Shown here: in pieces, positions 1,499 to 25,946 of the stretch | Layout: every line of letters begins with the position of its first letter | Numbering within the stretch: position 1 is the first letter of the stretch | Assembly: GCA_963824735.1 (NCBI GenBank) | Contig: CAWGQH010000005.1 | Coordinates: 35,193 to 99,192 of the forward strand | Source: an uncultured Chloroflexia bacterium | GTDB lineage: Bacteria > Chloroflexota > Limnocylindria > Limnocylindrales > CSP1-4 | Length of the DNA stretch: 64,000 nt | Reading direction: 5' to 3' | The notes under the pieces: generated by a model | Database searches by the model: none | Seen by the model: the letters and a program-made list of their open reading frames with translations, nothing else | What the model was told of the DNA's origin: nothing | Translations under genes and position numbers: made by a program

Positions 1499-1592
1499 CG
1501 CGGCGATGGTAGCGGCGCGGCGAAACCGCGGAGCCGCGTCGCGCGGGACGGGATCGGGAGCGCCGCACGGCGCCGTCTGGCAGACTGCCGCG

Positions 1593-3244: not shown

Positions 3245-3386
3245 CGGGCATAGCCGAAGCGGAAACGGCACATGGACGGTCGTCCATACGGATTCGGCGT
3301 CGCATGTCGGTATGGCGTGAACGTGCGCCGCGCGATGCTCCTGGTGCGCCACACGAAAAGAGGCGGCGCGGAAAGGAGAACCGACG

Positions 3387-3676: not shown

Positions 3677-4276
3677 CTAGGCGCCCGGCAGGTCCGCCGG
3701 CTCGTCGACGTCGCGCAGCGTGCGCGCATCGGGGTCGAGCGGGCGCCACTCCTCCTCCGCAAGCACGCGCACGGGCAGTCGGTTGGTGAGTGCCCCGAGC
3801 CGTCGTTCCCCTTGCGCGAGCAGGCGCCGCGCGGCATCGGTCCCGGCACCGGTGCGCACCGCGAACGGCAGCTGTTGCCGGCGCCCGCGATGCTCGAGGA
3901 GCGCCGCGTCGGCCGACGACGCGACGAGCGCGCGGATGAGCAGCGCCAGGACGGCGCGTTCGAGACTCGGCATGTCGCCGCCGGCGACGACCACGAGGGG
4001 TTCGCGCGCGGCGATGAGGCCGGTCATGCAGCCGGCGAGTGGGCCCTCGAACGGCGCCTCGTCGTGGACGAGTCGAACGCCGTCGGGGACCGCGAGGTCG
4101 ACGTCCGGCGGCGCCACCACGATCACATCGGTTGCGACGGCGGCCACGGCTTCGGTGGCATGGTGGAGCAACGGCCGCCCGTCGACCGGCTCGACCAGCT
4201 TGTCGCGGCCGAAACGCTTCGACCTGCCCCCCGCGAGGACGATCGCGCTGACAGCAGGAAGCGCGGCCGCGGTCAC
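3677..4276 (-). CDS. mobA: Molybdenum cofactor guanylyltransferase MobA
   Basis: LAGGRSKRFGRDKL nucleotide-binding motif. GTG start at 4274-4276 overlaps the selB stop (GTGA), indicating translational coupling. 199 aa. Confidence 0.8.
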   Translation of the reverse strand: MTAAALPAVSAIVLAGGRSKRFGRDKLVEPVDGRPLLHHATEAVAAVATDVIVVAPPDVDLAVPDGVRLVHDEAPFEGPLAGCMTGLIAAREPLVVVAGGDMPSLERAVLALLIRALVASSADAALLEHRGRRQQLPFAVRTGAGTDAARRLLAQGERRLGALTNRLPVRVLAEEEWRPLDPDARTLRDVDEPADLPGA

Positions 4277-6129
4277 GCTCCGCCTCGAACGCCCGCCGGT
4301 GCCCGCGGACCCGGCACGTGGCCGGCAGGCGTGCGCAGGAGGATGCCGCGTCGATCGAGGTCCTCGAGGATCGCGAGCACGTAGCGGCGGCTGGTCCCGG
4401 TCGCGTCGCGGAATGCTGCGGGGGTGAGGGGCTCGCGGCCCGCCAGCGCGAGCGCCTTCGCCGCCAGGTCGCGGTACGTCGGCATGGCGTAGGCCAGGTC
4501 CTCGTCGAGGACGACGATCCGACCGCCACGCTCGAGCTCGCGGATCGCCGCGGGCGGGCAACCGGCGGCGGCGGCGGCTTCACGCAGCGAGGGCGGCGCG
4601 AGGACCGCGAGGCCCTCCACGAGGCGGTCCATCGCCGCGGCGACCTCTGGTTCGGCGGCGGCCGGCTGGTGGTCGGGCGCGCGGACCCGGTCGCCATCCC
4701 GCACCAGGCGTCCTTCCGACGCCAGGTGGTCCACGAGGACGGCTGCACGCGCCGCAGCATCAGCCGCATTCACCGTCGCCTGGCGTCGGAGCGCCCGGGC
4801 TGCTGCTGACCGGACGGCCGCCAGGGTCGGGCCGGCGTCCCCCGGCTGCGCGGCGTGGTGCGCTCGTACGGCGTCGAGGGCAGCGGCGGACGCCGCGTCG
4901 CGGACGTCGGGCGCCACGTCCCGCTCGCTCGCGATGATTCCATGGAGCTCGACACGTGCGGCCTGGACGGCCGCGCGATCGCCGGCCTGCACGGCCGCGG
5001 CCAGGGCCGCCACTCGTTCGGGGGTCTGCCGCCGCCGGGAGACGCCCCGAGCGGGCAGCGGATCGAGGATGACGCCGCCAACCACCGCAGGTCCGGACGT
5101 TGCCGCCCGCCGAAGCACGAACCGGTCACCCGTCGCCGCAGCCAGCGTAGGCATCGAGCCGCAGCACGGCGGCAACGGCACCCCCCGGGAGGTCGAGGGC
5201 GTCACGGCCGCTTCGACCAACGGCCGCCTCCGCCGCGGCCGTTCCGAGGTGGACCCGGAAGCGTGCCCGATCCGGGACCGGGGCGGCGAGCATGACGAGC
5301 CACCGGTCCGAGGGGTGCACGTCCGGGTCGCTCGTGAGGACGACGCCACGGTGCAGGCCGGCTGCGGCTTCACCCGCGAGGTTGAGCGCGGTGCGGCCGC
5401 CGCCGGCGACCTCCTCCACCGGCGCGCCGTGGACCTGGACCTCGCGAACGCGCACGTCGGCGTCGCCCGGCACGACCCGCAGGTTCGCCCCACGCGGCAG
5501 CGGCCCGCCGCGGAGCGTGCCCGTGACGACCGTTCCCCGGCCCTTGATCCGGAACGCGCGGTCGACGGCGAGGCGCACCGGCCGAGCGGATTGCGCCACC
5601 CAGGCTGGATCGGCCAGCACGCGGTCGCGGAGTTCCACGAGCCCGGCCCGCAGCCTCTTCGATCCCGTCCCCTGTGCTCCCCGACACGACCACGATCGGC
5701 GCCCCAGCCAATGCCGTGGAGGCGAGTCGTGCGACCGACCGCCTCGCACACCTCGCCCGTCCGCTCCCCGGGCACGAGATCTGCCTTGGTGATGGCCACG
5801 AGCGCGTGCCTGACGGCCAGTGCGTCGAGCAGGTCGATGTGCTCGTGGGTCTGGGCGCGGAGACCGTCATCGGCGGCCACCACGAGCAACGCTGCATCGA
5901 TCTCGCCGGCACCAACGAGCATGTTGCCGACGAGCCGGTCGTGGCCGGGGACGTCGACGAAGTCGAGCTCGGTCCCGTCGGGCAACACGAGGTGCGCATA
6001 CCCGACGTCGATCGTCATCCCGCGGCGGCGCTCCTCCGGAAGGCGGTCTGCGTCGATGCCCGTGAGCGCGCGGAGAAGCGTCGTCTTGCCGTGGTCGATG
6101 TGGCCGGCCGTGCCGACGACCACGGTCAC
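4273..6129 (-). CDS. selB: Selenocysteine-specific elongation factor SelB (about three apparent frameshifts)
   Basis: G domain GTAGHIDHGKTTLL…DVPGH…ITKADL. LAGAPIVVVSGSTGDGIEE in a second frame. Domain II/III (RLAVDRAFRIKGRGTVVTGT…) in a third frame. C-terminal GDRFVLRR…VVGGVILDP and winged-helix tail back in the first frame. Shifts near 5750-5770, 5650-5660 and 5150-5180. ATGA overlap with selA. Confidence 0.8.
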   Translation of the reverse strand: MTVVVGTAGHIDHGKTTLLRALTGIDADRLPEERRRGMTIDVGYAHLVLPDGTELDFVDVPGHDRLVGNMLVGAGEIDAALLVVAADDGLRAQTHEHIDLLDALAVRHALVAITKADLVPGERTGEVCEAVGRTTRLHGIGWGADRGRVGEHRGRDRRGCGPGSWNSATACWPIQPGWRNPLGRCASPSTARSGSRAGERSSRARSAAGRCRVGRTCGSCRATPTCAFARSRSTARRWRRSPAAAAPRSTSRVKPQPACTVASSSRATRTCTPRTGGSSCSPPRSRIGHASGSTSERPRRRRPLVEAAVTPSTSRGVPLPPCCGSMPTLAAATGDRFVLRRAATSGPAVVGGVILDPLPARGVSRRRQTPERVAALAAAVQAGDRAAVQAARVELHGIIASERDVAPDVRDAASAAALDAVRAHHAAQPGDAGPTLAAVRSAAARALRRQATVNAADAAARAAVLVDHLASEGRLVRDGDRVRAPDHQPAAAEPEVAAAMDRLVEGLAVLAPPSLREAAAAAGCPPAAIRELERGGRIVVLDEDLAYAMPTYRDLAAKALALAGREPLTPAAFRDATGTSRRYVLAILEDLDRRGILLRTPAGHVPGPRAPAGVRGGA

Positions 6130-7537: not shown

Positions 7538-7546
7538 CGATCCTCC

Positions 7547-7643
7547 TGGCGGGAGCGCATGGGAGTCGAACCCACCGCGCGACGCCGAGCGCCGCGCCAC
7601 TGGTTTTGAAGACCAGGGGAGCCACCGGGCCCCAACCGCCCCC
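7547..7643 (-). tRNA. selC: tRNA-Sec (selenocysteine tRNA), anticodon UCA
   Basis: Minus-strand sequence GGGGGCGG TT GGGGCC CGGT GGCTCC C CTGGT CTTCAAA ACCAG [long variable arm] GTGGG TTCGACT CCCAT GCGCTCCC G CCA. Sec-type features: 6-bp D stem with 4-nt D loop, UCA anticodon in a CUUCAAA loop, about 23-nt variable arm, TTCGACT T-loop, encoded CCA. Lies immediately upstream of selA. Confidence 0.85.
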
Positions 7644-7665
7644 TCGTCGATGGTAGCGGTTCAGC

Positions 7666-7956: not shown

Positions 7957-7962
7957 GGCCGA

Positions 7963-8232
7963 TCAGAGCTCGTCGAGCGGCAGGAACCGACCGGCGCGCG
8001 CAGCGGCAAGTCCCTCCTGGGCTCGTTCCAATGCGCCCGGAATGGAGTCGAGGATCTCGGTGATCGTGCTCGCGTCCGGGTCCGCCTGATCCAGCGCGGA
8101 CGACAGCAGAGATCGCGCGATCGTCCCGGGCTGAACGTAGACACGCTCGGCGACCGCGTGAAGCTTTGCCGCGTGTTCGTCATCGAGCTGGACGTTGAAG
8201 CGATTCGATCGCTCTTCGGACACCGTCGTCAC
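7963..8232 (-). CDS. Ribbon-helix-helix (ParD/CopG-like) antitoxin
   Basis: 89 aa with GTG start. …NRFNVQLDDEHAAKLHAVAER… RHH signature. Directly upstream of the ParE-like frame. Confidence 0.5.
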   Translation of the reverse strand: MTTVSEERSNRFNVQLDDEHAAKLHAVAERVYVQPGTIARSLLSSALDQADPDASTITEILDSIPGALERAQEGLAAARAGRFLPLDEL

Positions 8233-8343
8233 CTGGGTACACTGATCTGCACGAAAAGTGTATCGAAGACGCTAGCGGCAATGGTCCGACCGGGTCAAGC
8301 CTCAGCCGCCTTTCGTCCTCGTAGCGGCATATCATCCAACCGC

Positions 8344-9407
8344 ATGACCACGCTCGAAACGCTGCCACCGATCCGCCTGACCGAGCTGACCGACTGCGGT
8401 GGCTGCGCCGCCAAGCTCGGGGCCGACCTGTTGAGCGACGCGCTCAGCGGGCTGGGAGCGGAAGGGGCGCCCGACGGAGCTCATCGCCGGCCTGGCACCA
8501 CCCGACGACGCGGCCGCCTATCGAGTCAGCCCGGAGCTCGCCATCATCGGCACGCTCGACTTCTTTCCACCGCTCGTCGACGACGCCCGGACGTACGGCG
8601 AGATCGCCGCGGCCAACGCCCTCTCGGACGTGTTCGCGATGGGCGGCCGGGTGCTCTTCGCGCTGTCGATCGCGGCATTCCCCGAGGACCTGCCGCGGGA
8701 CACCCTGGCCGCGATCTTCGACGGGGCATCGGCGAAGGTGCGCGAAGCGGGCGGCACGCTCGCGGGCGGTCACACGATCCGGGACCCCGAGCCCAAGTAC
8801 GGCCTGGCGGTCATCGGCGCGGCGCACCCCGACCGCCTCTTGCGCAAGGGCGGTGCCCGACCCGGTGACCGGCTGCTGCTGACCAAGCGGCTGGGGACGG
8901 GCGTGCTCGTGTCGGGCTCGCGCCAGGGGCGGACCGCGCCCGAGGACCTCGCCGCGGCGGTCGACCAGATGCGGACGTTGAACCGGGCGGCTTCGGAAGT
9001 GCTCGTCGAAGCGGGCGTCAACGCGGCGACCGACGTGACCGGCTTCGGCCTGCTCGGCCACGGCCTCGAGATGGCCCGCGCGTCCGGCGCCCGGTTCACG
9101 TTCGAGGCCGGCTCCCTGCCGGTCCTCGCCGGCGCGCTCGAGCTGGCGGCCGCCGGCGTCGAGACCGGCGGGGCAGCCCACAACCGGCGCTTCGTCGCCG
9201 ACGCGCTGACCGTCGCGGATGGAGTGGCACCCGAGCTCGTGACGCTCGCCCACGATCCGCAGACCTCCGGCGGGCTGCTGGCGGCCGTACCACCCGACCG
9301 CGTCGACGCGATCGAGGCCGCGCTCGACGAACGCAGGCGTCGAGCACTGGTGGATCGGCTCGGTCGATACGGACTCGACCGCCACAGGGACCGTCGCACT
9401 GACCTAG
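8344..9407 (+). CDS. selD: Selenide, water dikinase SelD (Cys-type; two apparent frameshifts)
   Basis: ATG at 8344 (MTTLETLPPIRLTELTDCGGCAAKLG…). …DDAAAYRV…LDFFPPLVDDARTYGEIAAANALSDVFAMGG…AGGHTIRDPEPKYGLAVIG…VTGFGLLGH…DPQTSGGLL. Frame shifts near 8460 (extra G in a GGGG run) and near 9335. Third frame ends …GVEHWWIGSVDTDSTATGTVALT* at TAG 9405-9407. Active site has Cys (CGGC), not Sec. Confidence 0.8.
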
Positions 9408-9463
9408 CGATTTCGGCCCGAACGGCCCATCCCGTCGGCGCCGGCGCCCGCCACGCTCGCGCC

Positions 9464-9808
9464 ATGCGTCAGCGAATCGCCCTCGCCGCGATCAAGGGCA
9501 TCCACACTGTCGCGTTCGCGGTGATCGCCACGTCGATCCTTGTCGTGCTCCTCGACGGGCTGCGGGGCCGCCCGACCCGGCGCACGGCAGCTGCCCTCGG
9601 AATCGCGCTGACCGAATGCGCCGTCTTTGCCGCGAATGGGTTCGTCTGTCCTTTGACACCGCTCGCCGAACGCCACGGTGCGCGACGCGGCTCGGTCAGC
9701 GACATCTTTCTGCCCGACGTGGTCGCCGAGAACCTGACCTGGTCCGCATCGACCGTCCTCGTGATCGGGATCGCCCTCAACGCCCGAGCGATCAGACGAG
9801 GTCGCTGA
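9464..9808 (+). CDS. Small membrane protein (2-3 TM), function unknown
   Basis: ATG at 9464. Hydrophobic helices IHTVAFAVIATSILVVLL and TWSASTVLVIGIAL. In frame with the spurious selD extension. Confidence 0.4.
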   Translation: MRQRIALAAIKGIHTVAFAVIATSILVVLLDGLRGRPTRRTAAALGIALTECAVFAANGFVCPLTPLAERHGARRGSVSDIFLPDVVAENLTWSASTVLVIGIALNARAIRRGR

Positions 9809-9838: not shown

Positions 9839-10540
9839 GTGCCTGCCCGCCTCGTCGCCCTGATCCCGGGCTACAACGAGGGTCCGCGGATCGGGCCGGT
9901 CGTCGAGGCGACGCTACGCCATCTCCCGGTCCTGGTCGTCGACGACGGCTCGGCGGACGACACCGCCGATCAGGCGCGCGCCGCTGGTGCGACGGTCATC
10001 GAACAGCGCCCGAACCAGGGCAAGGGCGCGGCACTCCGCCTGGGCTTCGAACGTGCCATCGCCGAGGGCTACAACGCCGTCCTCACGCTCGATGCCGACG
10101 GCCAGCACGACCCGGCGGAAATCCCGAAGTTCGTGGCCGCGTACGAGGCGGATCCGCGTCCGGACCTCGTCATCGGCCGGCGCAACTTCCGCACGATGCC
10201 ACCGACGCGCCGCCTCGCCAACGAGCTCGGCGGCCGCGCATTCTCATGGGCCGTCGGCCAGCCGATCCCCGACAACCAGTCCGGCTACCGGCTGATCGGA
10301 CGGCGGGTCATGGAGGCGACGCTCGGCAGCGACGAGGGCGGGTTCGAGTTCGAGGTCGAGATGATCACGACGTGCATCCGCCTCGGCGGCACGATCGCGT
10401 GGGTCCCGATCCGGACGATCTACGGCGCGCCGTCGCACATCCGGCCGCTCGACCACCTGCGCCACTTCATCCGGATCGTCCGGAAGGCACGTCGCGACGT
10501 GCGGACGCCCGCGGGGCTGACCGGCGCCGCCGATCCCCTC
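9839..10540 (+). CDS. Family-2 glycosyltransferase (DPM/GtrB-like); 3' end uncertain
   Basis: N-terminal 225 aa: IPGYNEGPRIGPVVEA…VVDDGSADDT…LDADGQHDP…QSGYRL. The ORF runs on to 12886 only as an antisense shadow of the LuxR gene. Confidence 0.65.
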
Positions 10541-13500
10541 CTGGTCGAAGCCGAGTCGCAGCGCCATCGCGACTGCCGCCCCGCGACCGCCGACGCCGAG
10601 CTTGCCGAGGATGTTGGACACGTGGACCGAAGCCGTCTTGTCGCTGATGAACAGGGCCTCTCCGATCTCACGATTGGTCAGGCCACCCGTCAGCAGCCCG
10701 AGCACCTCCCGCTCGCGGGCCGTCAGGCCCACGCCGAGATCGTCGCCGCCATCGGTCTCCCCGCCGAGATCGATGCGCGCCCGGCCCGCGAGGCCCGCGA
10801 CGGCCGCGAGCAACGGTTCGGCACCGAGCCGCGCTGCGGTGTCGGCCGCCGAGCGCAACGCTGCGGCGGCCTCCTCGCGCGCGGCACCGGTGGCCAGGAC
10901 CGTCTCGGCAAGGTGGAGACGACAGGTTGCCGCCTCGTAGACATACCCCAGGTCGTCGTACGCCTCGATCGCCGCCGTCCATGCTGCGATGTCGGACTGT
11001 CCGGCGAGCCGGAGGCGATCCGCGGCCCCATGGCGGACATAGGCCCGGAGCGTCGGTGGCCAACGCCCGGCGTCCGAGCCAAGGGCCAAAGCGGCCTCGT
11101 CCAGGATCCGAACGAGACGGAGGCCGCGCGCCTGCGCGGTCGCTACGCCGTCCGCGTCCCGTCGTCGCGTCGCGCGATCGGCCTCGTCGGCCTCCGCGGC
11201 CAGCGCCGCGCACAGCAGCCACCAGAGCGGGGCATCGTGGGCCGGATCCGCCGAGATGCTGAGCGCCTCGTCGATGGCGCTCCGGACCCGATCGATGTTG
11301 CCGCCGACGCGACCGAGGACGATGGCGGCGCGCATCACCCAGACGCGGTCGATGACGGCGTCCCCGGGACCGACGGCCTCGGACGCCGCTGCGAAGAGCT
11401 CAGCTGCTCCTTCCACGTCGCCGCGCATGGCGCAGATCTCGGCCAGCGATTCGAGATACCAGGGTGCGGAGCGACCCCCGTCCGCCTGCGCAAGCTCGGT
11501 CTCGCACAGGGCCACGGCCTCGTCCCAACGACCGAGATCGATGTAGCCGTCGACGATGTCGGTGACGAGGAACGGCCGGAAGCGGCGGAGCGAGCCGATC
11601 CGCGCCTGGCGGTCGAGCTCGTCGCGGATCAGTGCGTCAGCTTCTACATGCCGGCCACCCAGACACAGCGCGTAACTCAGCTGGCTGACCGCGATCCCGG
11701 ACCGGGGGTCGCCGGCAGCCAGGAACAGCGCATGTGCCTCGCGGAGGTCGGCGATGCCCTCGTCGAGCAACCCGTACGCCGCCCGGCCGGCGCCGATGCC
11801 CAGCAGCGCGCCGGCTTCGATGCCGACCTCGCCGGAGCGGCGCGCGGCCTCGATCGTCGCGTCGGCCGTGCGGACGATCTCGGGATAGCGGCCCATCCCC
11901 CACAGCAAGACGCCCCGCGTGGTCAGAAGCCGCGCGGTCCCGATCCCGGGGAAGTCGGAGCCAATCCACCCGAGCGCATGGTCGACGACCGTCAGGGCGC
12001 CGGCCTGGTCGCCGAGCTCCGAGAGGTACCAGGCGAGCCGGTCCGTTCGCCGCGCCCATGCTTCGCCGGGCGATGCGGTGTTGCCATCCGGTCCGCGCTC
12101 GATCGCCAGGCGAGCAAGCTCCACGGCGCGGCGGACACTGCCGGCGCTCGACGCAGAGGCCGCCGCACTGTCGTAGAGAGATGGCAGGTCGGTCCCCGTC
12201 TCCGACTCGGGATCGGCAACGCGGCTCCAGAGCCGGATGGCTCGCTCGAAATGCTCGAGTGCCTCGTCGTGAGCGAACACAGCCGCAGCCGCACGGCCTG
12301 CCCGAACCGACGCCCCGATTGCACGTCGATCGTCGTGGGCGCCGTGCCAGTGGTAGGCGAGCTCGGCGGTCAACCTTGCGTCCCCGTCCCAGTCGGCCGG
12401 GCCGCGGGTCGTAAGCGCCTCTGCGACGAGCGCATGGAGCGCGCTGCGCTCGGTCGGGAGCAGGTCCTCGTAGGCGACCTCCCGGACCAGCGCGTGGCGG
12501 AAATCGTACGCCGGGCCTCCATCGGTCTCGACCGGAACGAGCATGTGCTGATCCACGGCGTCGCGGAGGTCGTCGACGAGATCGGGCTCTGCGCGGTCGG
12601 CAACCGACGCGAGCAGGTCATGCTCCGCGCGCCGACCGATGACCGCCGCAATGCGCAGCACTCGCTGCGTCTCCTGGGCCAGGCCGGACAGCCTCGCGAG
12701 CAGGATCTCCTGGAGCGTCGGCGAGACGACGCCACGACGATCCCGAGAGGAACTCGTGAGCAGTTCCTCGACGAAGAACGGATTGCCATCCGACCGGCCC
12801 AGCACGTCCTCGACGAAACGCGCGCCGGGCACGGTTCCGAGGATCCCGGCGATCTGGGCCTGGACCTCGTCACGGTCGAGGCGTGAAAGGTCGATGCGCT
12901 CGACGGACGGCAGCCTTTCGAGAAGCGCGAGCAGCGGCAGCAGCGGATGCCGCCGCGTCAACTCGTCCGACCGGTACGTCCCGATCAGGACCAACCGCTC
13001 GTCGCGTAGCCGTCCCGCGAGGAACGTGAGCAGGGCGCGCGACGACGGATCGGCCCAGTGCAGATCCTCGAGCACGAGCACGATCGGTCGTGTCCAGCGC
13101 AAGGCGGCCCAGCACGTCGAGCACGGCTTCGAAGAGGCGCGGGCGCGAATCGACCCCGTCGTCGGGAGAGTGAACAGGGGAGGCCGGCGCGTCGCCGAGG
13201 CCGGGCACCAGGCGGGCGAGGTGGACGGCGCCGTCACCCGCTGCCTCGATGATCTGCTCGCGACCAACCTCGGCCAGCAGCGACCGAAACGCCTCGGTGA
13301 AGGGGCCGTAGGGCAGGTCGCTGTCGCCAAGTCCGATCGCGCCGCCGACGATGACGCCGAAGCCTTCGGCTCGAGCCATCGAGCTGGCCTCGGTCACGAG
13401 GCGCGTCTTCCCGACGCCGGCCTCTCCGGAGACGAGGACCGTCGAGGGCACGCCGCCCGATGCGCGGTCGCGCGCGGCGCGGAGCCGGTCGAGTTCGGCG

Positions 13501-13553
13501 AGGCGACCGGCCAGGGTCGGACTCACGACGCGGGTCGACATCGCGGGCATCAT
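10244..13553 (-). CDS. LAL-family (large ATP-binding LuxR) transcriptional regulator. At least one apparent frameshift; true stop probably near 10550.
   Basis: N-terminal AAA/NACHT-like VLVSGEAGVGKTRLV. …LVLEDLHWADPSS…LVLIGTYR in a different frame (shift near 13075). TPR-like middle. C-terminal HTH REREVLGLLTGGLTNREIGEALFISDKTASVHVSNILGKLGV. The 100 aa after …LRLGF look like a spurious extension. Confidence 0.7.
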
Positions 13554-13969
13554 CGACCCTGCCGCGACGGCGAGCAACGGATCAGCGGCCCCGCCGCCCG
13601 ATCGGTGACCGCCGGCCCATCTCAGTGGCGCGCGAAGCGGGCCACAAGGCGGCGGAGCCGAAAGGCTTCGTCCGTCCTGATACCGGTGGTCGGCCACGGC
13701 GGCCACGTCGTCGTCCGGGAGCGGCGGCACATCAGGCCGCCGGTGGAGGGCGCGCCATTCGTCGTCGGCGCGCCGACGGGCTTCGTCGCCAGAAAGGGCT
13801 CCCAGCGCCAGCAATCTTCCAAGTCCGTTCATCGGTCGTTCCCCGCTCGGTCAGCAGATCTCATGCTTCCACGATCGGACTAAGGGGCCGGGGATGCGCA
13901 TCGGGAGAACGCTCATTTCTCGGCGCGAGCGCTACACTCGTGCGGTCAGCTCCGCAGGAGGCCACCGCA
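13554..13969. promoter_or_regulatory. Divergent intergenic/promoter region between the LAL regulator and the Sec-containing fdhA
   Basis: 415 bp without convincing coding signal. Contains short inverted repeats (e.g. aacGCTCatttctcggcgcGAGCgct). AGGAGG SD sits 8 nt before the fdhA GTG. Confidence 0.3.
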
Positions 13970-15886
13970 GTGGCAAAGGCCTACGTTCGACTGACCCAGC
14001 CCCTCGTCCGCGACACGAAGGGCGGCGAGCTTCGACCCGCGACGTGGGACGAGGCGCTCGACCGGACCGTCGCCGGGTTCAGGACCGCGAACGCGGCCCA
14101 CGGCCCGTCGACATTCGGCATCTTCAGCTGCAGCAAGGCGACCAACGAGGTCAACTTCGCGGCGCAGAAGTTCAGCCGGGCGGTCCTGGGCAGCAACAAC
14201 ATCGACAGCTGCAACCGCACCTGACACGCCCCGAGCGTCGCCGGTCTGGCGACGGTGTTCGGTGCCGGTGGCGGCACAAGTTCATACCGTGAGATCGAAG
14301 AGACGGACCTGATCGTCCTGTGGGGCAGCAACGCCCGCGAGACGCACCCGATCTTCTTCCACCACCTCCTGCGCGGCGTGCGCAACGGCGCGCGCCTGTT
14401 CGCGGTCGATCCGCGGCGGACATCCTCGGCCGAATGGGCCGACACGTGGCTGGGTCTCGATGTCGGCAGCGACATCGCGCTGGCCAACGCCGTCGGCCGC
14501 GAGATCATCGCGGCGGGCCTCCAGCACCGCGAGTTCATCGAGCGGGCGACGTCGGACTTCGAGGCCTATCGCGCCGGCGTCGAGCCCTACACGCTCGAAT
14601 ACGCCCAGCGCGAGACCGGCGTGCCGGCCGATGCGATCCGCGAGCTGGCCCACGCCTTCGCGAAGGCCGACCGGGCGATGATCTGCTGGACGCTCGGCAT
14701 CACCGAGCACCACAACGCGGTCGACAACGTCCTCGCGCTCATCAACCTGGCGCTGCTGACCGGGCACGTTGGGAAGTACGGCAGCGGTCTCAACCCCCTG
14801 CGTGGCCAGAACAACGTGCAGGGCGGCGGCGACATGGGCGCGATCCCCGATCGGCTACCCGGCTTCCAGCACGTCGAGAACGACCGGCTTCGGGCGAAGT
14901 TCGAACAGGCGTGGGGGGTGACGATCCCGGACAAGCGCGGCCGCCACCTGACGGCGATGTGCGACGCGATGGCGTGCGGCGACCAGCGCCTGCTGTACGT
15001 GATCGGCGAGAACCCGGCCCAGTCGGAGGCCGACCAGGGCCGCATGCGCGGCATGCTCGAAGGCCTCGAGTTCCTCGTCGTCCAGGACCTGTTCCTGACG
15101 AAGACGGCGGAGCTGGCGGACGTCGTCCTGCCGGCGGCGGCCTCGTGGGCCGAGAGCGAAGGGACGGTCACGAACTCGGAACGGCGCGTCCAGCGCGTGC
15201 GCAAGGCGAAGGAGCCGCCCGGCGACGCGCGCGACGACCTGTGGATCATCGCCGAGCTCGCGCGCCGAATGGGCAGCGACTGGGGCTGGTCCGGCGCCGA
15301 GGACGCCTGGAACGAGCTGCGGACCCTGTCGCCGATGCACGCCGGAATGACGTACGCGCGGCTCGACGAGCTCGATGGCATCCAGTGGCCGTGCTACGAC
15401 GAGGACCACCCGGGCGAGCTGTTCCTCCACTCGCGGCTGTGGGAGGACCCGGTCCCGGGGATGCGCGCGCCGTTCGTGGCGGTCGAGCACGACCCGCCGG
15501 TCGACCGCCTCGACGACGACTTCCCGATCCGGCTCACGACCGGCCGCCGGCTCGACTCGTACAACACGGGCGTCCAGACCGCGGGCTACACATCGCCGCT
15601 GCGGCGCGGCGAGTCGCTCGACATCTCCCCGGAGGATGCCGCCGCGTACGGGCTCGTCGACGGCGAGCGCGTCTGCGTCACCTCGCGGCGCGGGCAGGTC
15701 GAGGCGCCGATCCGGATCGACGAGTCGCTGCGGCCAGGGCTGACGTTCATGACGCTCCATTTCCAGGACGACGTCGCGACGAACCTGCTGACCATCGACG
15801 CATGGGACCCGAAGTCGGGCACGGCCGAGTTCAAGGCCACGGCGATCCGCATCGAGAAGCTCCCGGCGGCCGAACCCGTCGCCTGA
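13970..15886 (+). CDS. fdhA: Formate dehydrogenase alpha, Mo-bisPGD catalytic module. Selenoprotein with in-frame UGA at 14222-14224; lacks the N-terminal Fe-S domain.
   Basis: GTG 13970 after AGGAGG. Aligns with E. coli FdhF from about residue 45: ELRPATWDEAL…, SNNIDSCNRT-U-HAPSVAGL (U = TGA) matching FdhF NNVDCCARVUHGPSVAGL, GQNNVQGGGDMGA…, C-terminal …AEFKATAIRIEK. The two tool ORFs 13460-14224 and 14255-15886 are in the same frame, separated only by the TGA. Confidence 0.85.
14232..14258 (+). promoter_or_regulatory. Bacterial SECIS-like hairpin downstream of the UGA-Sec codon
   Basis: 12 nt after the TGA: gtcgcc GGUCU ggcgac (14237-14253, 6-7 bp stem). Apical loop carries GGUC, as in the E. 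coli fdhF SECIS. Confidence 0.55.
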
Positions 15887-17545: not shown

Positions 17546-19260
17546 ATGCGCAACCCGCTGCCGATCGCGATCCTGGCCGCCGCGCAGTTCGTGATGGTGC
17601 TCGACAGCAGCGTCATGAACGTGTCGATCTCGCAGATCGTGGCCGACCTCGACACCACGATCCAGGGCGTCCAGCTGGCCATCACCGCGTACACGCTCGT
17701 CATGGCCGCGTTCATGCTCGTCGGCGCGAAGCTGGGCGACATCTGGGGACGCGATCGGGCCTTCGCGGTCGGCCTGGTGGTCTACGCCACGGGCTCGTTC
17801 ATCACGGCCATCAGCCCGAACCTCGCCGTCCTGCTCTTCGGCTGGTCGCTGATCGAGGGCCTCGGGGCGGTGCTCGTGGTCCCCGCGATCGCGGCGCTCG
17901 TCGCGCAGAACTACGAGGGCAAGGAGCGGGCGCTGGCCTACGGGATCGTCGGTGGCGTCGCGGCAGCCGCGATCGCGGCCGGTCCGGTGATCGGCGGCTG
18001 GGTGACGACCACGTTCACGTGGCGCCTGGTGTTCGTCGGCGAGGTCTTCATCGTTGCCGTCATCCTGCTCACCCGGAAGCGCATGAAGTCCGCGCCCGCC
18101 GAACCGAACCCGCCGAGCCTCGACATCGTCGGCGCCGCCCTCTCGGCGAGCGGCCTGGCGATCATCGTGCTGGCCATCCTCCAGAGCAGCACGTGGGGCT
18201 TCATCCTGCCGCGCGTGGTCCCGGTCATCGCCGGTCGCGAGATCACGCCGCTCGGGTTCTCCGTGGTGCCGTTCCTGATCCTCGCCGGGCTCGGCCTCCT
18301 GTTCGTCTTCGAGGCCTGGGAGCAGCGCCTCGCCCGGCTCGGTCGCGACCGACTGCTCGACTCCGCGCTGCTCGGGATCGTCCACCTTCGCGCCGGGCTG
18401 GCGACCCTCGGCGCCCAGCAGCTGGTCCTGCTCGGGACGTTCTTCGTGCTCCCCGTCTACCTCCAGGTCGTCCTCGGGCTCAATGCCCTGGAGACCGGCC
18501 TGCGCCTGCTGCCGATGTCGGTGACGATGCTGATCGCGGCGCTGACCGGCCCGAAGATCGCCGCCCGGCGGTCGCCGAAGGCCGTGTGCCGGCTCGGCCT
18601 GGTGGCGATCTCGGTCGCGGCGGTCGTCCTGCTGGCGACCCTCGACATCGAGCTCAACGACGTCGGGTTCCTGGTCGGACTCGCGGTGTTCGGCGTCGGG
18701 GCCGGGTTGCTCGCATCGCAGCTCGGGAACGTGATCATCTCGGCGGCCCCACCCGCGCAGACGAACGAGGCCGGCGGCCTCCGGTCTGCTCGCATCGCAG
18801 CTCGGGAACGTGATCATCTCGGCCGCACCGCCGGAGCAGACGAACGAGGCCGGCGGTCTTCAGGGCACGGCCCAGAACCTCGGCGCATCGCTCGGGACGG
18901 CGCTCATCGGCGCGATCCTGCTGATCGGGCTGACAAACGGGTTCGTGGAGCGGATCACGGCGAACGAGGAGCTCCCCGCCGAGCTTCGGACGACCGTTGC
19001 CACGGCGGCGAGCGAGCAGGGGCTCGAAGTCATCCCGGTCACGGAGGTCGAGCAGTTCCTGACGGACGCCGGCCTCCCGCCCGACCAGGCCGAGGCCATC
19101 GCGACGGACTACGGCGCCGCGCAGCTCGACGGCCTCCGGCTGGCCCTCGGCGGGGTCGCGCTGCTGGCGCTGCTCGGCCTGTTCTTCACCCGGAACCTGC
19201 CCGACCGGTCGACCCAGGAGGAGGCTGGTCGCCGAAGAACCCGTTCCGGTGGCGGCACCG
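17546..19260 (+). CDS. MFS transporter, DHA2 (14-TM drug:H+ antiporter-like), interrupted by a 79-bp tandem duplication; 3' end approximate
   Basis: N-terminal MRNPLPIAILAAAQFVMVLDSSVMNVSISQI… and multiple TM helices. After the duplication the frame continues …QGTAQNLGASLGTALIGAILLIGL…LLALLGLFFTRNLPDR. Confidence 0.7.
18711..18868. repeat. Imperfect 79-bp tandem duplication inside the MFS gene
   Basis: cgcatcgcagctcgggaacgtgatcatctcggc…cagacgaacgaggccggcgg occurs twice (18711-18789, 18790-18868) with several substitutions. The 79-bp period gives a +1 frameshift. Both copies encode LASQLGNVIISAAPP(A/E)QTNEAGGL. Confidence 0.75.
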
Positions 19261-19302
19261 GCCGGCTGACTCGGCGCCCGCCGGGCGCCTACACTCGGGG
19301 CG

Positions 19303-19900
19303 ATGGATCTGCACGTCATCGGGCCCCTCGCGTCCCCGGCCGAGCGGGCCGCGGTCGACGCGGTCCTCGGGCCACCGGCGACTCGCTGGGTCGGCGGTGA
19401 GCGAACGCCCGGTTCCGAGGGCCACGTGTCCCACGGCGGCCACGCCGCCCGCTCGCGACGCGATCTGCTGCTCCCGGTACTGCACGCGGTCCAGGACCGC
19501 ATCGGCTGGATCAGCCAGCCGGCCCTGAACTACGTCTGCAAGCGGCTGACGATCCCGCCGGCCGAGGCCTACGGCGTGGCCACGTTCTACGCGCTGTTCG
19601 CGACGAAGCCGCGGCCACCGGTCGTGGCCCACCTGTGCGACGACATCGCCTGCCGGCTGGCCGGCGCCGAGACGGTGATCGGCGACGTGGAGCGGGCGCT
19701 CGGTCCGGAGGGGCAGCCCTCCGCCGATGGAGAGCGAACCTGGCTCCGATCGCCCTGCCTCGGCCTGTGCGACCGCGCGCCCGCGGCACTGGTCACCGTC
19801 GCCGGTGCCGCAGCCGGTGACGATGGCAGCGGCCCCGGTCGACGCCGCCGGGATCGTGGCCCGGATGGCGCCTGGTTACAACGGCCGCGGCCGGCACGCC
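19303..19900 (+). CDS. fdsG: NAD-dependent formate dehydrogenase gamma subunit (NuoE-like 2Fe-2S protein); 3' end/junction with the next gene unclear
   Basis: …GVATFYALF…HLCDDIACRLAG…CLGLCDRAPAALV (four-Cys 2Fe-2S pattern of the NuoE/24-kDa family). Frame ambiguities in 19800-19910; possible fusion to the NuoF-like gene. Confidence 0.65.
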
Positions 19901-19910
19901 CGAAGACGCC

Positions 19911-21144
19911 GTGCCGCAAGCCGGCCAAGCGGACCTCCGACTCCTGGCACGGGTGGGCGTCGTCGATCCGACGTCCCTTGACGACTACCGCGCCCACGGC
20001 GGCTTCCGCGCCCTCGAGCGCGCTCGCGCGATCGGGCCGGAGCAGGTGATCGACGAGGTCACGAGGTCCGGGCTCCTCGGCCGCGGCGGCGCGGCGTTCC
20101 CCACCGGGCGCAAGTGGGCGGCCGTGGCCGCCCAGCAGGCCCAGCCCCACTACCTGGTCTGCAACGCGGACGAGTCGGAGCCCGGCACGTTCAAGGACCG
20201 GGTGCTCATGGAGGGCGACCCGTTCGCGGTCATCGAAGCGATGGCGATCGAGGCGTTCGCCGTCGGGGCGGGCAAGGCCTACCTCTACATTCGCGGCGAG
20301 TACCCGCTGGCCGAAGCACGGATCGCGAACGCGATCACGGCGGCGACCGAAGCCGGCCTGCTCGACGGGCTCGACATCGAGCTGCGACGTGGGGCAGGCG
20401 CCTACATCTGCGGCGAGGAGACGGCGCTGTTCGAGTCGATCGAAGGAAAGCGCGGCGAGCCGCGCAACAAGCCGCCGTACCCGGTGGAAGTCGGCCTGTT
20501 CGACAAACCGACGGCCGTCAACAACGTCGAGACGATCGTCAACGTGCTGCTGATCGTGGGCGAGGACGGCGGTGCGGAGGCGTTCAAGGCGATCGGCACC
20601 GAGGGCTCGACCGGCCCGAAGCTGTTCTGCCTGTCGGGCAACGTCGAACGACCCGGGCACGTACGAGGTCCCGTTCGGGACGACGCTCGGCGAGCTGCTC
20701 GCGCTCGGCGGCGGCGTCCCCGGCGGTCGGGAGATCAAGGCGATCCTGCTCGGCGGGGCCGCCGGCGTGTTCGTGGGGCCCGATGCGCTCGACCTGCCGC
20801 TGACCTTCGAGGCCACGCGCGCCGCCGGGGCGACCCTCGGCTCGGGCGTCGTGATGGTGTTCGACGAGCGCGCCGACCTCGTCGGCACGCTGACCCGGAT
20901 CGCCCAGTTCTTCCGCGACGAGTCGTGCGGGCAGTGCGTCCCGTGCCGGGTCGGGACGGTCCGCCAGGAGGAGCTGCTCGCCCGCCTCGCGGCAGGTTCG
21001 GGCGTGCGCTCGCGCGAGGACGAGCTCGTGCTGCTGCGCGAGGTCGGGCAGGCGATGCGCGACGCCTCGATCTGCGGGCTCGGCCAGACCGCGTCCTCGG
21101 CGATCGAATCGGCGTTCCGACAACCCGGGCTGGTGGCCCTGTGA
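19911..21144 (+). CDS. fdsB: NAD-dependent formate dehydrogenase beta subunit (NuoF-like; NAD/FMN-binding, 4Fe-4S), one apparent frameshift
   Basis: GRGGAAFPTGRKW…YLVCNADESEPGTFKDR…YLYIRGEY…YICGEETALFESIEG. After a frame change near 20650 (extra G in cccggg): …TYEVPFGTTLGELL…ESCGQCVPCRVGT…CGLGQ. Stop 21142-21144. Confidence 0.8.
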
Positions 21145-22214
21145 GCGACGACCTGCAGCGCACGGCCGCGCCGCGCTTCCCTGTCGCAGCGGTGACGCAG
21201 GTTTCGCCGATCGTGCTCGAGCCGCCGGCCCGACCAAGCCGGATCCCGCAGCCGCCGCCGGTCGAGGCCCCGCCGCAGGTCGAGCTGACGATCGACGGCG
21301 TCACCGTCACGGTCCCGCAGGGCTCGACGATCCTCGACGCCTGCCGGGCGCTCGCGGTCGACACGCCGACGCTGTGCTACGCCGACAACCTCACGCCGGT
21401 CAACGTCTGCCGGGTCTGCGTCGTCGAGGTCACCGGGTCGCGCGTCCTCGTGCCGTCCTGTTCGCGCAAGGCCGAGCCCGGGATGGAGGTCTTCACCGAC
21501 TCCGAGCGCGTGCGCACGTCGCGCAAGGTCGTGCTCGAGCTGCTCGGCTCGTCGGTCGACCTGTCGCTGGCCGGCCCGGCCGTGCCCGACGGCTCGCTCG
21601 CGGACTGGTCGCAACGCTACGGCGCGGACCCGAGCCGCTTCGGGCCGCCGGCCGAGCCCGCGGCCGCCGGCGAGCGCGACACCCACGACCCGGGCCATCA
21701 CCACGCGCCCCACGGTGACGCGGAGACGGCCACGGTCGCGCAGCCGGTCAAGGTCGACAACGACCTGTACGTGCGGGACTACGCGAAGTGCGTGCTCTGC
21801 TACAAGTGCGTCGAGGCGTGCGGCGAGGACGCCCAGAACACGTTCGCGATCGCCGTCGCGGGGCGCGGCTTCGACGCCCGCATCTCGACCGAGTACGCGA
21901 CGCCGCTGCCGACGTCGGCGTGCGTCTACTGCGGCAACTGCATCGGCGCCTGTCCGACCGGCGCGCTGATGTTCAAGTCGGAGCACGACATGCGCGCCGA
22001 AGGGACGTGGGACGAGTCGGCGCAGACCGTGACCAACACGATCTGCCCGTACTGCGGCGTCGGCTGCTCGCTGGACCTCCACGTCCAGGACGACGAGATC
22101 GTCAAGGTGACCTCACCGCTCGACTCGAGCGTCACCGAGGGCCACCTCTGCATCAAGGGCCGCTTCGGCTTCGAGTTCGTCAACGAGCGCCCCGGCCGTC
22201 CGAACCAGAGCTGA
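21141..22214 (+). CDS. fdsA: Formate dehydrogenase alpha subunit, N-terminal Fe-S module only (NuoG-like; ends at the start of the MopB domain)
   Basis: GTG 21141 overlapping the fdsB stop (GTGA). 2Fe-2S ferredoxin part (…LCYADNLTPVNVCRVCVVEV…SCSR), two 4Fe-4S motifs (CVLCYKCVEACGE, CVYCGNCIGACPTGA), MopB N-terminal cluster CPYCGVGCSLDLH…CIKGRFGFEFVNE, then stop at 22212-22214. Confidence 0.8.
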   Translation: MSDDLQRTAAPRFPVAAVTQVSPIVLEPPARPSRIPQPPPVEAPPQVELTIDGVTVTVPQGSTILDACRALAVDTPTLCYADNLTPVNVCRVCVVEVTGSRVLVPSCSRKAEPGMEVFTDSERVRTSRKVVLELLGSSVDLSLAGPAVPDGSLADWSQRYGADPSRFGPPAEPAAAGERDTHDPGHHHAPHGDAETATVAQPVKVDNDLYVRDYAKCVLCYKCVEACGEDAQNTFAIAVAGRGFDARISTEYATPLPTSACVYCGNCIGACPTGALMFKSEHDMRAEGTWDESAQTVTNTICPYCGVGCSLDLHVQDDEIVKVTSPLDSSVTEGHLCIKGRFGFEFVNERPGRPNQS

Positions 22215-25070: not shown

Positions 25071-25946
25071 CTACCCCCAGCCGACGAGGTCGCGCAGGTC
25101 GATCCGGTCGTCGTGGGTGTAGACGTTGAAGCCGTCGCCGCGGAGGAAGCCGACGAGCGTGACGCCGAGCCGTTCCGCGGCCGAGATCGCGAGGTCCGAC
25201 GGCGCCGACACGGCACAGAGGATCGGGATGCCGGCGACGGCCGCCTTCTGGACGATCTCGAAGCTCACCCGACCGGACACCATCAGGATCGTGTCGTGGA
25301 GCGGGAGCCGGCCCGCGAGCACCTGCGACCCGATCGCCTTGTCGAGCGCGTTGTGCCGCCCGACGTCCTCGCGCAGCACGAGCAGCTCGCCGGTCGTTGA
25401 GAACAGCCCCGACGCGTGCAGGCCGCCGGTCTCGTCGAACGCCCGCTGAGCGGCACGCAGCGCGTCCGGTAGCGCCAGGATCGTCGAGCGGGCGACGACC
25501 GGTGCGCCGGCCGGGATCGGCTCGGCGCGGAGGGCCACCTCGTCGAGCGAGGCCTTGCCGCAGATCCCGCAGGACGCCGTGGCGATGAAATGGCGCTCGG
25601 CAACGCGCGAGGCATCGAAGGCGCTCGACAGGCGAACCACCGCGGTGTCGTCCGGCTGGTTCATCGTCGTTGGATCGCCGGTCTCGACCCGGAGCACCTC
25701 CGGGCCCTCGATGAGGCCCTCGGTGCGCAGGAACCCGACCGCCAGTTCGTCCTCGTAGCCGGGAGTCCGCATCGTCACGGCCACAGCCACCGGCTCCTGC
25801 TTCGGCCCGGCAGCGCGGATCTCGAGCGGCTCCTCACCGACCACGCGATCCGCTCGAACCTCGAGCCCATCGCCGCGGACGGCGATGATCCGCGTCGTCG
25901 TCACGTGGCGTGTAGGTGGCGGGACCTCGTCGATTCGATCTGTCAT
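25071..25946 (-). CDS. fdhD: Formate dehydrogenase accessory sulfurtransferase FdhD
   Basis: ATG 25944-25946. Motifs …ATASCGICGKASLDEV… and …EDVGRHNALDKAIG…. Confidence 0.85.
   Translation of the reverse strand: MTDRIDEVPPPTRHVTTTRIIAVRGDGLEVRADRVVGEEPLEIRAAGPKQEPVAVAVTMRTPGYEDELAVGFLRTEGLIEGPEVLRVETGDPTTMNQPDDTAVVRLSSAFDASRVAERHFIATASCGICGKASLDEVALRAEPIPAGAPVVARSTILALPDALRAAQRAFDETGGLHASGLFSTTGELLVLREDVGRHNALDKAIGSQVLAGRLPLHDTILMVSGRVSFEIVQKAAVAGIPILCAVSAPSDLAISAAERLGVTLVGFLRGDGFNVYTHDDRIDLRDLVGWG

Follow-up and report, generated by a model that had tools for sequence, protein, structure and literature searches.

A UGA codon within a Chloroflexota formate dehydrogenase gene very probably encodes selenocysteine and is followed by a conserved SECIS-like hairpin

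A single TGA triplet separates two open reading frames (ORFs) that lie in the same frame within a 64,000-nucleotide stretch of DNA from an uncultured soil Chloroflexia bacterium (hereafter the window), which raises the question of whether it ends a gene or is decoded as selenocysteine (Sec). The features of the gene concerned are as follows.

14222..14224, + strand: UGA, very probable selenocysteine codon (codon 85), aligned with Sec140 (1aa6) and Cys386 (6tg9)
13970..15886, + strand: formate dehydrogenase catalytic (Mo/W-bisPGD) subunit, 638 codons including one in-frame UGA
13957..13961, + strand: putative Shine-Dalgarno GGAGG, read from the sequence, separated by 8 nt from the start codon GTG 13970
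14237..14253, + strand: predicted SECIS core hairpin, 6-bp stem GUCGCC/GGCGAC with loop GGUCU, which folds and is paired in relatives

An earlier note on this DNA had described an in-frame TGA between the ORFs 13460-14224 and 14255-15886, and both the coordinates and the translation across the triplet (SNNIDSCNRT*HAPSVAGLATVFG, exact) were confirmed. It had also put the TGA at the Sec site of FdhF, and when the alignment was run the triplet indeed fell on X140 (Sec) of E. coli FDH-H (1aa6, motif NNVDCCARVXHGPSVAGL), in an ungapped block where 7qv7, 7bkb and 6tg9 carry Cys. The catalytic His lies directly after the TGA and RGQ is also present in the protein; the site reads U-H-A-P in the window protein, U-H-x-P being the metal-ligand-site motif of Sec-containing formate dehydrogenases (Table 1 in PMC13188914). 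As to the N-terminal part, for which the ORF 13460-14224 had been named, the frame is right, but the true start is most likely GTG 13970 and not ATG 13460, since the N-terminal piece of the relatives has the same length, 84 codons.

A scan found relatives of the gene in 584 species-level genomes, and 80 of these, from several soil phyla, were fetched. The TGA stands at the site in 83 of 83 sequences (82 related loci fetched plus the window), with protein identity among the related loci ranging from 72 to 98%, and the loci bearing it belong to at least five phyla: Chloroflexota/Limnocylindria, Acidobacteriota, Methylomirabilota, Planctomycetota and Actinomycetota MAGs. An actinobacterial origin of the window, which its GC content had at first suggested, was discarded because its nearest genomes are MAGs of Chloroflexota/Limnocylindria. 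Past the TGA the frame remains open for 546-569 more codons in 79 of 81 loci and for 432 and 741 codons in the remaining two, one further related locus that reaches the contig end being left out of this count. Reassignment of TGA as a sense codon is ruled out, as the same gene terminates in TGA in 57 of 82 loci, the window included (15884-15886). The best 120 database homologues are ORFs of about 542 aa, every one of them starting just past the TGA site, and 84-aa N-terminal fragments are abundant in databases, one cluster having 992 members.

The protein carries the Pfam domains Molybdopterin and Molydop_binding, its PDB matches are FdhF-type formate dehydrogenases (1e-147 to 1e-137), and the stretch of R. 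capsulatus FdsA that it matches in the PDB search comprises residues 308-931. The TIGR01591 Fdh-alpha model scores 658.9 bits where 666.25 would be needed to pass, and is matched at profile positions 52-672 only, a shortfall that corresponds to the missing Fe4S4 domain, and the second-best family model, NasC, reaches just 404 bits. The N-terminal [4Fe-4S] domain (Molybdop_Fe4S4) is absent from the catalytic polypeptide, whose alignments to every solved formate dehydrogenase begin at chain residue ~61 or ~308 of the solved enzyme. The gene, previously named fdhA, encodes a formate dehydrogenase catalytic subunit but not a complete FdhF-type alpha subunit. Its active-site motif U-H...R-G-Q is present, with H86 and PLRGQNNVQG aligning with the FdhF-type enzymes. 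Classified by active-site motif, for which RGQ, RGH and RGE Arg types are distinguished and "C/UH RGQ" denotes class I (PMC8808070), the predicted catalytic subunit falls in class I.

Twelve nucleotides downstream of the TGA begins the predicted hairpin, composed of the 5' arm GTCGCC (14237-14242), the loop GGTCT (14243-14247) and the 3' arm GGCGAC (14248-14253), and extended in the window by a seventh pair, C14236-G14254. From the stem of 6-7 bp reported earlier at this distance, six pairs form a perfect helix without a bulge in 82 of 82 sequences, whereas the seventh pair and the extended lower stem are not conserved among the relatives (35% paired). The isolated 19-mer hairpin folds with -11.9 kcal/mol (z = -3.5; 0 of 200 shuffles equally good). 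Folding with flanking sequence, by which the earlier proposal was to stand or fall, gave the hairpin in three of four contexts (the minimum free energy (MFE) folds of 41, 65 and 111 nt), and it is found in all 82 relatives; in the 69-nt context the MFE picks another fold, without the hairpin. With longer flanks the folding z of -0.05 to -1.0 is about chance level in sequence of ~70% GC and uninformative because of that GC-richness.

The hairpin agrees with the bSECIS model (PMC13188914) throughout: a loop of 3-9 nt (here 5 nt) with a G within its first two positions (here GG), a stem of 4-16 bp (6-7 bp), a UGA-to-loop distance of 16-37 nt (18 nt) and an MFE of at most -7.5 kcal/mol, compared with the -11.9 kcal/mol above. 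Since this model is permissive, passing it is necessary but weak evidence, and the weight comes from the comparative data. In the covariance-model check suggested earlier, the Rfam families SECIS_2 / SECIS_3 (RF01988, RF01989) matched the right spot, exactly 14217-14272, when 14150-14350 was searched at a permissive E-value, but with only 14.3 bits for SECIS_3 and 13.4 bits for SECIS_2 (E 1.4-7) against gathering thresholds of 63 and 70, too low for the matches to count as evidence; a search of the whole window at gathering thresholds returned only tRNA-Sec and no SECIS family. A covariance model built from 83 hairpins and searched over the window gave a self-match of 69.7 bits and a runner-up of 13 bits, finding there no second SECIS of the same type and nothing resembling a SECIS ahead of selA.

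Comparison among the relatives provided the stronger argument. The loop is GGUCU in 78 of 82 sequences, the Gly +7 codon is GGT in 78/82, and the loop variants GGGCU and GGACU occur in Methylomirabilota and Planctomycetota. Codon entropy amounts to 0-0.32 bits at codons +5 to +9 (GTC GCC GGT CTG GCG) and to 1.3-1.8 bits at flanking four-fold Ala/Pro/Ser/Thr/Val/Gly codons, the low synonymous variation coinciding exactly with the hairpin codons. Three stem variants were seen, U-A to U.G (7), C-G to U.G (12) and C-G to U-A (1), and pairing is kept in all three. Covariation is not significant (110 of 500 shuffles match the observed score, four of the six pairs being invariant), so the RNA argument rests on conservation and not on compensatory change. 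The conserved peptide SVAGLAT dictates part of the hairpin sequence. Four Cys-type homologues, with TGT/TGC at the site, use different VAGL codons followed by Ser-Ala, and no equivalent hairpin was found in these four. Because synonymous sites are constrained, pairing is 100% and the hairpin is lost in the Cys-type homologues, we conclude that the RNA structure is under selection beyond protein coding; judged on these alignments, the comparative evidence lifts the hairpin far above chance. The constancy of the 17-nt element across phyla, at protein identities down to 72%, might reflect either horizontal spread of a module or an unusually strict SelB code.

The window also encodes a tRNA-Sec and well-conserved selA, selB and selD, absent from the earlier note, 4-10 kb upstream of the UGA-containing gene.

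7547..7643, - strand: tRNA-Sec (selC), anticodon UCA, encoded CCA end; ARAGORN and Rfam RF01852
6126..7537, - strand: selA (selenocysteine synthase); Pfam SelA and TIGR00474, each on two ORF pieces
4273..6129, - strand: selB (Sec-specific elongation factor); Pfam GTP_EFTU and SelB-wing_3, TIGR00475
8344..9370 (end approximate), + strand: selD (selenophosphate synthetase); TIGR00476, Pfam AIRS/AIRS_C, tblastn

The tRNA-Sec scores 70.7 bits with RF01852 (gathering threshold 47), and the selA ATG at 7537, opening the N-terminus MAKHAAKSGSPRPPSVERV, lies 9 nt past its 3' end. SelB ends in a winged-helix domain of the SECIS-binding type (SelB-wing_3), the binding itself being predicted, and SelD, whose C-terminal piece scores 230 bits with TIGR00476 (cut-off 125), is of the Cys type (TDCGGCAAK). 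A scan of 60 related loci located a tRNA-Sec within 10 kb upstream of the gene in 36 of them. Taken at face value, the frameshifts in selA, selB and selD of the window would mean a broken Sec pathway: selA is spread over at least three frames (tblastn against the intact SelA of the related locus L001), selB has two frameshifts (three tblastn segments, frames -3/-2/-3) and selD is likewise frameshifted. However, frameshifts in SelA/SelB/NuoEF affect 11 of 21 "contig_"-type MFD/ENA assemblies and 0 of 13 other assemblies, and since they are tied to this long-read assembly type and not to biology, those in the window are probably assembly artefacts. A homopolymer test, in which 24% of the indels between the window and the related locus L003 adjoin runs of at least 3 (background 21%), is uninformative because the two genomes are 5-16% apart.

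These data have to be weighed against other explanations of the TGA. If it were a real stop, there would be two products, the N-terminal one a peptide of 84 aa and the other a protein of ~543 aa begun at GTG 14255, and a GTG is present at that position, while automatic annotation of the relatives shows exactly such a split. Yet the 30-nt stretch between the ORFs encodes HAPSVAGLAT, a peptide that never varies and that contains the catalytic His, and its codons +2 to +4 change only synonymously, so it must be translated in frame; codon +11 is GTG in just 43/82 and otherwise GTC, GTT, GTA or Ile, so that no start codon is conserved; and neither product would hold the metal ligand position, all of which leaves two separate products very improbable. 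The UGA might instead be decoded as a standard residue, with no selenium involved, by a near-cognate tRNA (Trp/Cys) or by Ser- or Cys-charged tRNA-Sec; E. coli formate dehydrogenases are known to show selC-independent and Cys-for-Sec events (PMC3636253). One relative even has W at the site in its database translation (P0124), probably from a caller using another code. We regard such decoding as highly unlikely, given that a tRNA-Sec/selA/selB/selD cluster accompanies the gene in the window (as a tRNA-Sec does in the 36/60 relatives), that leaky read-through has no need of a hairpin whose synonymous sites are conserved and whose loop starts with G at the canonical distance, and that lineages using Cys encode TGT/TGC outright.

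The TGA might also be suspected of being a nonsense mutation in a pseudogene, or a misread TGC/TGT in an assembly of low quality, since neighbouring genes of the window carry many frameshifts. The errors of the window, however, are indels and not substitutions, they follow assembly type as described above, and the fdhA frame is intact over its 638 codons; the identical TGA recurs in 82 independent assemblies, short-read ones among them. This explanation carries a negligible probability, and conservation of the TGA in 83/83 sequences effectively rules it out.

Further genes for the enzyme and its cofactor are found in the window.

3689..4267, - strand: mobA-like molybdenum cofactor guanylyltransferase; TIGR02665 92.7 bits, under the cut-off of 151.85
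19303..21141, + strand: NuoE/NuoF-like fusion; Pfam 2Fe-2S_thioredx and Complex1_51K
21189..22214, + strand: Fe-S subunit, counterpart of the N-terminal third of FdsA; Pfam Fer2_4, Fer4 and Molybdop_Fe4S4
25077..25919, - strand: fdhD, formate dehydrogenase accessory sulfurtransferase; NF001943 275 bits, cut-off 269

The mobA-like gene adjoins selB, as does its homologue in the related loci L001 and L002. The NuoE/NuoF-like fusion, the equivalent of FdsG plus FdsB (2Fe-2S, FMN/NAD site), has two frameshifts in the window and an unbroken 614-aa orthologue in L001 and L002. FdhD shares 81% identity with that of L001 by tblastn. The Fe-S ORF aligns with residues 18-304 of 6tg9_A, with Molybdop_Fe4S4 at its C-terminal end, and its orthologues in L001 and L002 measure 357-361 aa. 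The alpha subunit is split, its Fe4S4 domain residing on a polypeptide separate from the catalytic part, and the same split occurs in L001, L002 and actinobacterial loci. A search of the available literature turned up no paper that connects Limnocylindria with selenocysteine or reports a split FdsA, which is not proof of absence. We tentatively raise the possibility that the gene represents an undescribed, very widespread NAD-linked variant of FdsABG, with a split alpha subunit, a Sec-containing catalytic half and its own selC-selAB-selD/mobA/fdhD island, although we consider this rather doubtful.

Our preferred reading is that the UGA at 14222-14224 very probably specifies Sec, the Mo/W ligand of the formate dehydrogenase catalytic subunit. 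Decoding would follow the established bacterial pathway: serine would be charged onto the tRNA-Sec and converted to Sec by SelA with selenophosphate from SelD, the complex of SelB, GTP and Sec-tRNA-Sec is predicted to bind the GUCGCC-GGUCU-GGCGAC hairpin of the mRNA through the C-terminal winged-helix domains of SelB, and the tethered complex would compete with RF2 for the A site and bring Sec there. The 638-residue Sec protein with its U-H...R-G-Q active site would then probably join the Fe-S subunit and the NuoE/F-like subunit in an FdsABG-like, NAD-linked formate dehydrogenase, whose cofactor may be matured by FdhD and the MobA-like protein.

No bacterial selenoprotein family is more widespread than FdhA, and one more Sec-containing formate dehydrogenase therefore leaves understanding unchanged; a Sec codon plus recoding hairpin in fdhA is an ordinary case, routinely split into two ORFs by gene callers. 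Public protein collections accordingly mis-annotate the gene as ORFs of 84 aa and ~542 aa, and as a consequence metabolic reconstructions probably under-call formate dehydrogenase and selenium dependence in Limnocylindria, a class abundant in soil, and in its relatives. Moreover, FdsABG enzymes are oxygen-tolerant and NAD-linked, and a Sec-containing, split-alpha relative may interest work on formate/CO2 biocatalysis.

Compared with fdhF of E. coli and Salmonella (FDH-H), the putative Sec occupies the homologous position of N-N-[IV]-D-x-C-x-R-x-U-H-x-P-S-V-A-G-L, a C follows the UGA, the hairpin lies in the coding region right after it, and GGUCU, coding for Gly-Leu, occupies nt 22-26 in both, the U of the UGA being nt 1. 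The enterobacterial fdhF SECIS reads UGACACGGCCCAUCGGUUGCAGGUCUGCACC (PMC4489274), and a conserved loop G ~20 nt downstream and a stem of 6-8 bp have been described (PMC4605307). The GGUC-type likeness to E. coli fdhF claimed in the earlier note extends to the loop register and the bSECIS model, but not to the bulged U of the upper stem, which is reported to be important there (U18 in the numbering of PMC4489274) and is missing in the window, where position 18 is a C paired with G30. In addition, the window loop has 5 nt and is closed by C-G, whereas that of fdhF is GGUC closed by A-U, and no long lower stem is conserved; unlike FdhF, the protein has no Fe4S4 domain at its N-terminus, and the genes beside it are NuoE/F-like and not hydrogenase-3. 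The resemblance to FdsABG of Rhodobacter capsulatus and Cupriavidus necator (6tg9) lies in the Fe-S ORF (18-304) and the catalytic ORF (308-931), which together tile FdsA, and in the NuoE-like and NuoF-like partners and FdhD encoded close by; the window differs in having an alpha subunit made of two polypeptides that part where the Fe4S4 and Mo domains meet, in the fusion of the NuoE- and NuoF-like parts, in the predicted replacement of Cys386 by Sec and in the distance of 3.4 kb between the catalytic gene and the other subunit genes. With the mycobacterial selC-selAB cluster (PMC13449736) the locus shares high GC, a selC that immediately precedes selA and shares its strand, a formate dehydrogenase as apparently the sole selenoprotein target nearby, and a Sec gene overlooked by gene callers, because UGA is the common stop codon. 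Unlike that cluster, the window belongs to the phylum Chloroflexota, class Limnocylindria (closest MAGs), and whereas the mycobacterial enzyme is an FDH-O/N-type major subunit (PMC13449736), the one predicted here is of the FdsA-like cytoplasmic type.

Canonical bacterial selenocysteine insertion at the TGA 14222-14224 is the best-supported reading of the fdhA locus. The TGA is in frame with the mechanical ORFs on either side of it (13460-14224 and 14255-15886), and reading through it yields SNNIDSCNRT*HAPSVAGLATVFG; both the coordinates and the read-through translation claimed in an earlier note on this DNA were confirmed. The start of fdhA is most likely the GTG at 13970, with GGAGG at 13957-13961 ahead of it, rather than the ATG at 13460, as the N-terminal piece in relatives comprises exactly 84 codons. 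The 638-residue read-through product contains the Pfam domains Molybdopterin and Molydop_binding, and its best solved relatives are without exception formate dehydrogenases: HDCR FdhF (7qv7, 1e-147), the formate dehydrogenase structure 7bkb (1e-144), E. coli FDH-H (1aa6, 6e-140) and R. capsulatus FdsA (6tg9, 1e-124). NCBIfam TIGR01591 (Fdh-alpha) scored 658.9 bits over profile positions 52-672, slightly short of the 666.25 cut-off, the runner-up family being NasC with 404 bits. The TGA had been proposed to occupy the Sec site of FdhF, and in an ungapped alignment block it falls on X140, the selenocysteine of FDH-H (NNVDCCARVXHGPSVAGL), and also on the Cys ligand of Cys-type enzymes; in the 6tg9 alignment query residue 7 corresponds to residue 308, hence codon 85 to Cys386. 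The His beside the Sec position and the RGQ arginine motif were both found, by which the product belongs to the 'C/UH RGQ' class of formate dehydrogenases (PMC8808070).

Among the best 120 matches in a search of 5.8 billion proteins, nearly all were ORFs of ~542 aa with 84-85% query coverage, all starting just past the TGA, and the N-terminal 150 residues used as query retrieved many 84-aa fragments, one cluster of which has 992 member sequences. In public gene calls (database entries P0002-P0120 and P0144-P0240) the gene is cut on a very large scale into 84-aa and ~542-aa ORFs; entry P0124 has W at the Sec position, as though called under a TGA=Trp code. A scan of species-representative genomes yielded 584 relatives, of which 80 loci were fetched, and conservation was counted on 82 loci plus the window. 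The fetched loci are in majority Chloroflexota/'Candidatus Limnocylindrales' MAGs, the closest being MFD00392.bin.3.213 (98% amino-acid identity), together with Acidobacteriota, Methylomirabilota/Rokubacteria, Planctomycetota and Gaiellales. The Sec-site codon is TGA in all 82 loci and in the window (83/83), which rules out a pseudogene or a sequencing error at this position. Of 81 loci in which a stop is reached, 79 have an open frame of 546-569 codons past the TGA and the remaining two have 432 and 741 codons; one further locus ends at a contig edge. TGA is also the fdhA terminator in 57/82 loci, window included, and is thus a normal stop there, recoded at the Sec site only. That the TGA is a true stop between two separate products is very improbable, given that the 30-nt 'gap' shows coding-type conservation and the GTG is not conserved (43/82).

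The hairpin described in the earlier note, a GTCGCC/GGCGAC stem 12 nt past the TGA closing GGUCU, was found at 14237-14253:

14237-14242, + strand, 5' arm, GTCGCC
14243-14247, + strand, loop, GGTCT
14248-14253, + strand, 3' arm, GGCGAC

C14236-G14254 adds a seventh pair in the window, one that forms in just 35% of sequences. The isolated 19-mer folds at -11.9 kcal/mol (z = -3.5). With flanking sequence included, the minimum free energy structure bore out the proposed folding at 41, 65 and 111 nt and lacked the hairpin at 69 nt. Since the z-scores of longer stretches range from -0.05 to -1.0, thermodynamics by itself is unpersuasive in this ~70% GC DNA. In a set of 82 distinct sequences, codon entropy is 0-0.32 bits at positions +5 to +9 past the TGA (GTC GCC GGT CTG GCG), compared with 1.3-1.8 bits for adjacent four-/six-fold codons (Ala +2, Pro +3, Ser +4, Thr +10, Val +11, Gly +13 to +17), and Gly +7 is GGT in 78/82, while nearby Gly positions employ all four codons. 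Each of the six stem positions forms a standard pair in 82/82 sequences; the variants, which result from Ala to Val and Thr to Ala replacements, all preserve pairing (U-A to U.G in 7 sequences, C-G to U.G in 12 and C-G to U-A in 1). As the covariation test of the stem was not significant, with four of six pairs invariant and 110/500 shuffles matching the observed score, the case for selection is built on suppressed synonymous change, not compensatory change, and on this comparison we take the hairpin to be under RNA-level selection. Four Cys-type homologues from Streptomyces/Nonomuraea-type genomes, with TGT or TGC at the site, served as control. Their VAGL codons are GTC GCC GGG CTG, GTG GCG GGG CTG or GTC GCG GGC CTG, followed by Ser-Ala; an equivalent of the hairpin was found in none of the four, the corresponding 19 nt forming other structures of -3.4 to -7.2 kcal/mol.

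The consensus bacterial SECIS (PMC13188914) has a loop of 3-9 nt with G at the first two positions, a stem of 4-16 bp, a UGA-to-loop distance of 16-37 nt and an MFE of -7.5 kcal/mol or lower; the hairpin has a 5-nt loop beginning with GG, a 6-7 bp stem, 18-nt spacing and -11.9 kcal/mol. A stem of 6-8 bp and a conserved loop G ~20 nt past the UGA are likewise described (PMC4605307). The suggested kinship with the GGUC loop motif of E. coli fdhF holds, as GGUCU occupies nt 22-26 both here and in the enterobacterial fdhF SECIS (PMC4489274), whose bulged U is missing from the window hairpin. Rfam SECIS_3 (14219-14272) and SECIS_2 (14217-14271) lie on the site, at low scores of 14.3 and 13.4 bits, respectively. 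A covariance model built from 83 hairpins detected no second copy in the window (next match 13 bits). GGUCU forms the loop in 78 cases, with GGGCU in three (loci L043, L048 and L049, Rokubacteria/Methylomirabilota) and GGACU in one (L066, Planctomycetia). These variants replace the U at loop position 3, whose importance in the E. coli element has been reported, and SelB recognition of the loop may differ in these lineages.

Genes for selenocysteine synthesis and insertion are located in the same window:

7547-7643, - strand, tRNA-Sec (ARAGORN; Rfam 70.7 bits)
7537-6126, - strand, selA, start 9 nt past the tRNA CCA end, GGAGG ahead
6129-4273, - strand, selB, with GTP_EFTU and SelB-wing_3 winged-helix domains
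4267-3689, - strand, MobA-like gene
8344-9370, + strand, selD, divergent from tRNA-Sec/selA
25919-25077, - strand, fdhD

At 7535-7643 (-) the tRNA-Sec gene with its encoded CCA is followed immediately by GGAGG and, 9 nt off, the selA ATG, an arrangement that suggests co-transcription of selC, selA and selB, as described for mycobacteria. A scan of 60 related loci placed tRNA-Sec at most 10 kb upstream of the gene with the TGA in 36 cases, all Chloroflexota-type. A 1.75-kb selD segment (7659-9411) is missing from the two closest relatives, L002 (~4771-4776) and L003 (~5049-5055), whose alignment runs from the tRNA-Sec region to ~9412 without interval; their selD must presumably be located elsewhere or be absent. 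The ORF 8630-9808 (+), holding the SelD C-terminal half, continues for ~130 codons beyond SelD homology with a hydrophobic stretch (…AIKGIHTVAFAVIATSILVVLLDG…), which could be a small membrane-protein gene joined by a frame error or a genuine extension. Directly upstream of fdhA, and divergent, lies a large LuxR-family regulator (10244-13540, -), whose L002 orthologues have an AAA_16 ATPase and a GerE-type HTH; it is a candidate regulator of fdhA.

In canonical insertion, SelB-GTP-Sec-tRNA-Sec would be tethered via the hairpin 12 nt past the UGA and compete there with RF2, yielding a Mo/W-bisPGD active site with a Sec ligand. Selenium-independent read-through of the UGA would leave both the linked sel cluster and the constrained hairpin unexplained, and we consider it highly unlikely. 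The finding of the earlier note, a Sec codon with a SECIS-like hairpin, is correct.

Between 1473 and 22214 nearly every gene needs at least one frame change, and fdhA needs none. Two are required in selB, at least two each in selA and selD, and two in the NuoEF-like gene; the features affected in addition to the sel genes are:

1473-3320, amidohydrolase
10244-13540, - strand, LuxR-type regulator
17546-19528, MFS transporter
19303-21141, NuoEF-like gene

The shifted segments retain 52-88% identity to intact orthologues, and in a comparison of 34 related loci SelA/SelB/NuoEF are multi-frame in 11/21 'MFD/contig_' assemblies versus 0/13 others. The MFD genomes are Nanopore-based MAGs. We concluded that the frameshifts probably represent consensus indel errors, not pathway decay. 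The assembly errors are indels and the fdhA frame is intact; the TGA, a conserved base triplet, is thus not an indel artefact.

The Fe-S ORF 21189-22214 (NuoG-like) aligned to FdsA residues 18-304 and the catalytic ORF to residues 308-931; the Fe4S4 domain is not part of the catalytic polypeptide and lies at the C-terminus of the separate Fe-S protein. Taken together, the two ORFs span an FdsA-type alpha subunit that is divided where its Fe4S4 and Mo domains meet. NuoE/NuoF-like genes, with the two parts fused (614 aa in relatives), precede the Fe-S gene at 19303-21141, and a distance of 3.4 kb separates the catalytic gene of the window from those of the other subunits. We infer an NAD-linked FdsABG-like formate dehydrogenase of three polypeptides. 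Besides the window, L001, L002, L083 and L086 show this division of the alpha subunit, which is shared by Chloroflexota and Cys-type loci of actinobacteria and is thus real and old.

Our literature search found nothing tying Limnocylindria to selenocysteine and no description of a Sec-bearing split-alpha architecture. Of the bacterial selenoprotein families, FdhA is described as the most widespread (PMC13188914). The Sec codon, hairpin type and gene neighbourhood are textbook; new are the lineage, the extent of mis-annotation and the Sec-bearing split-alpha architecture.
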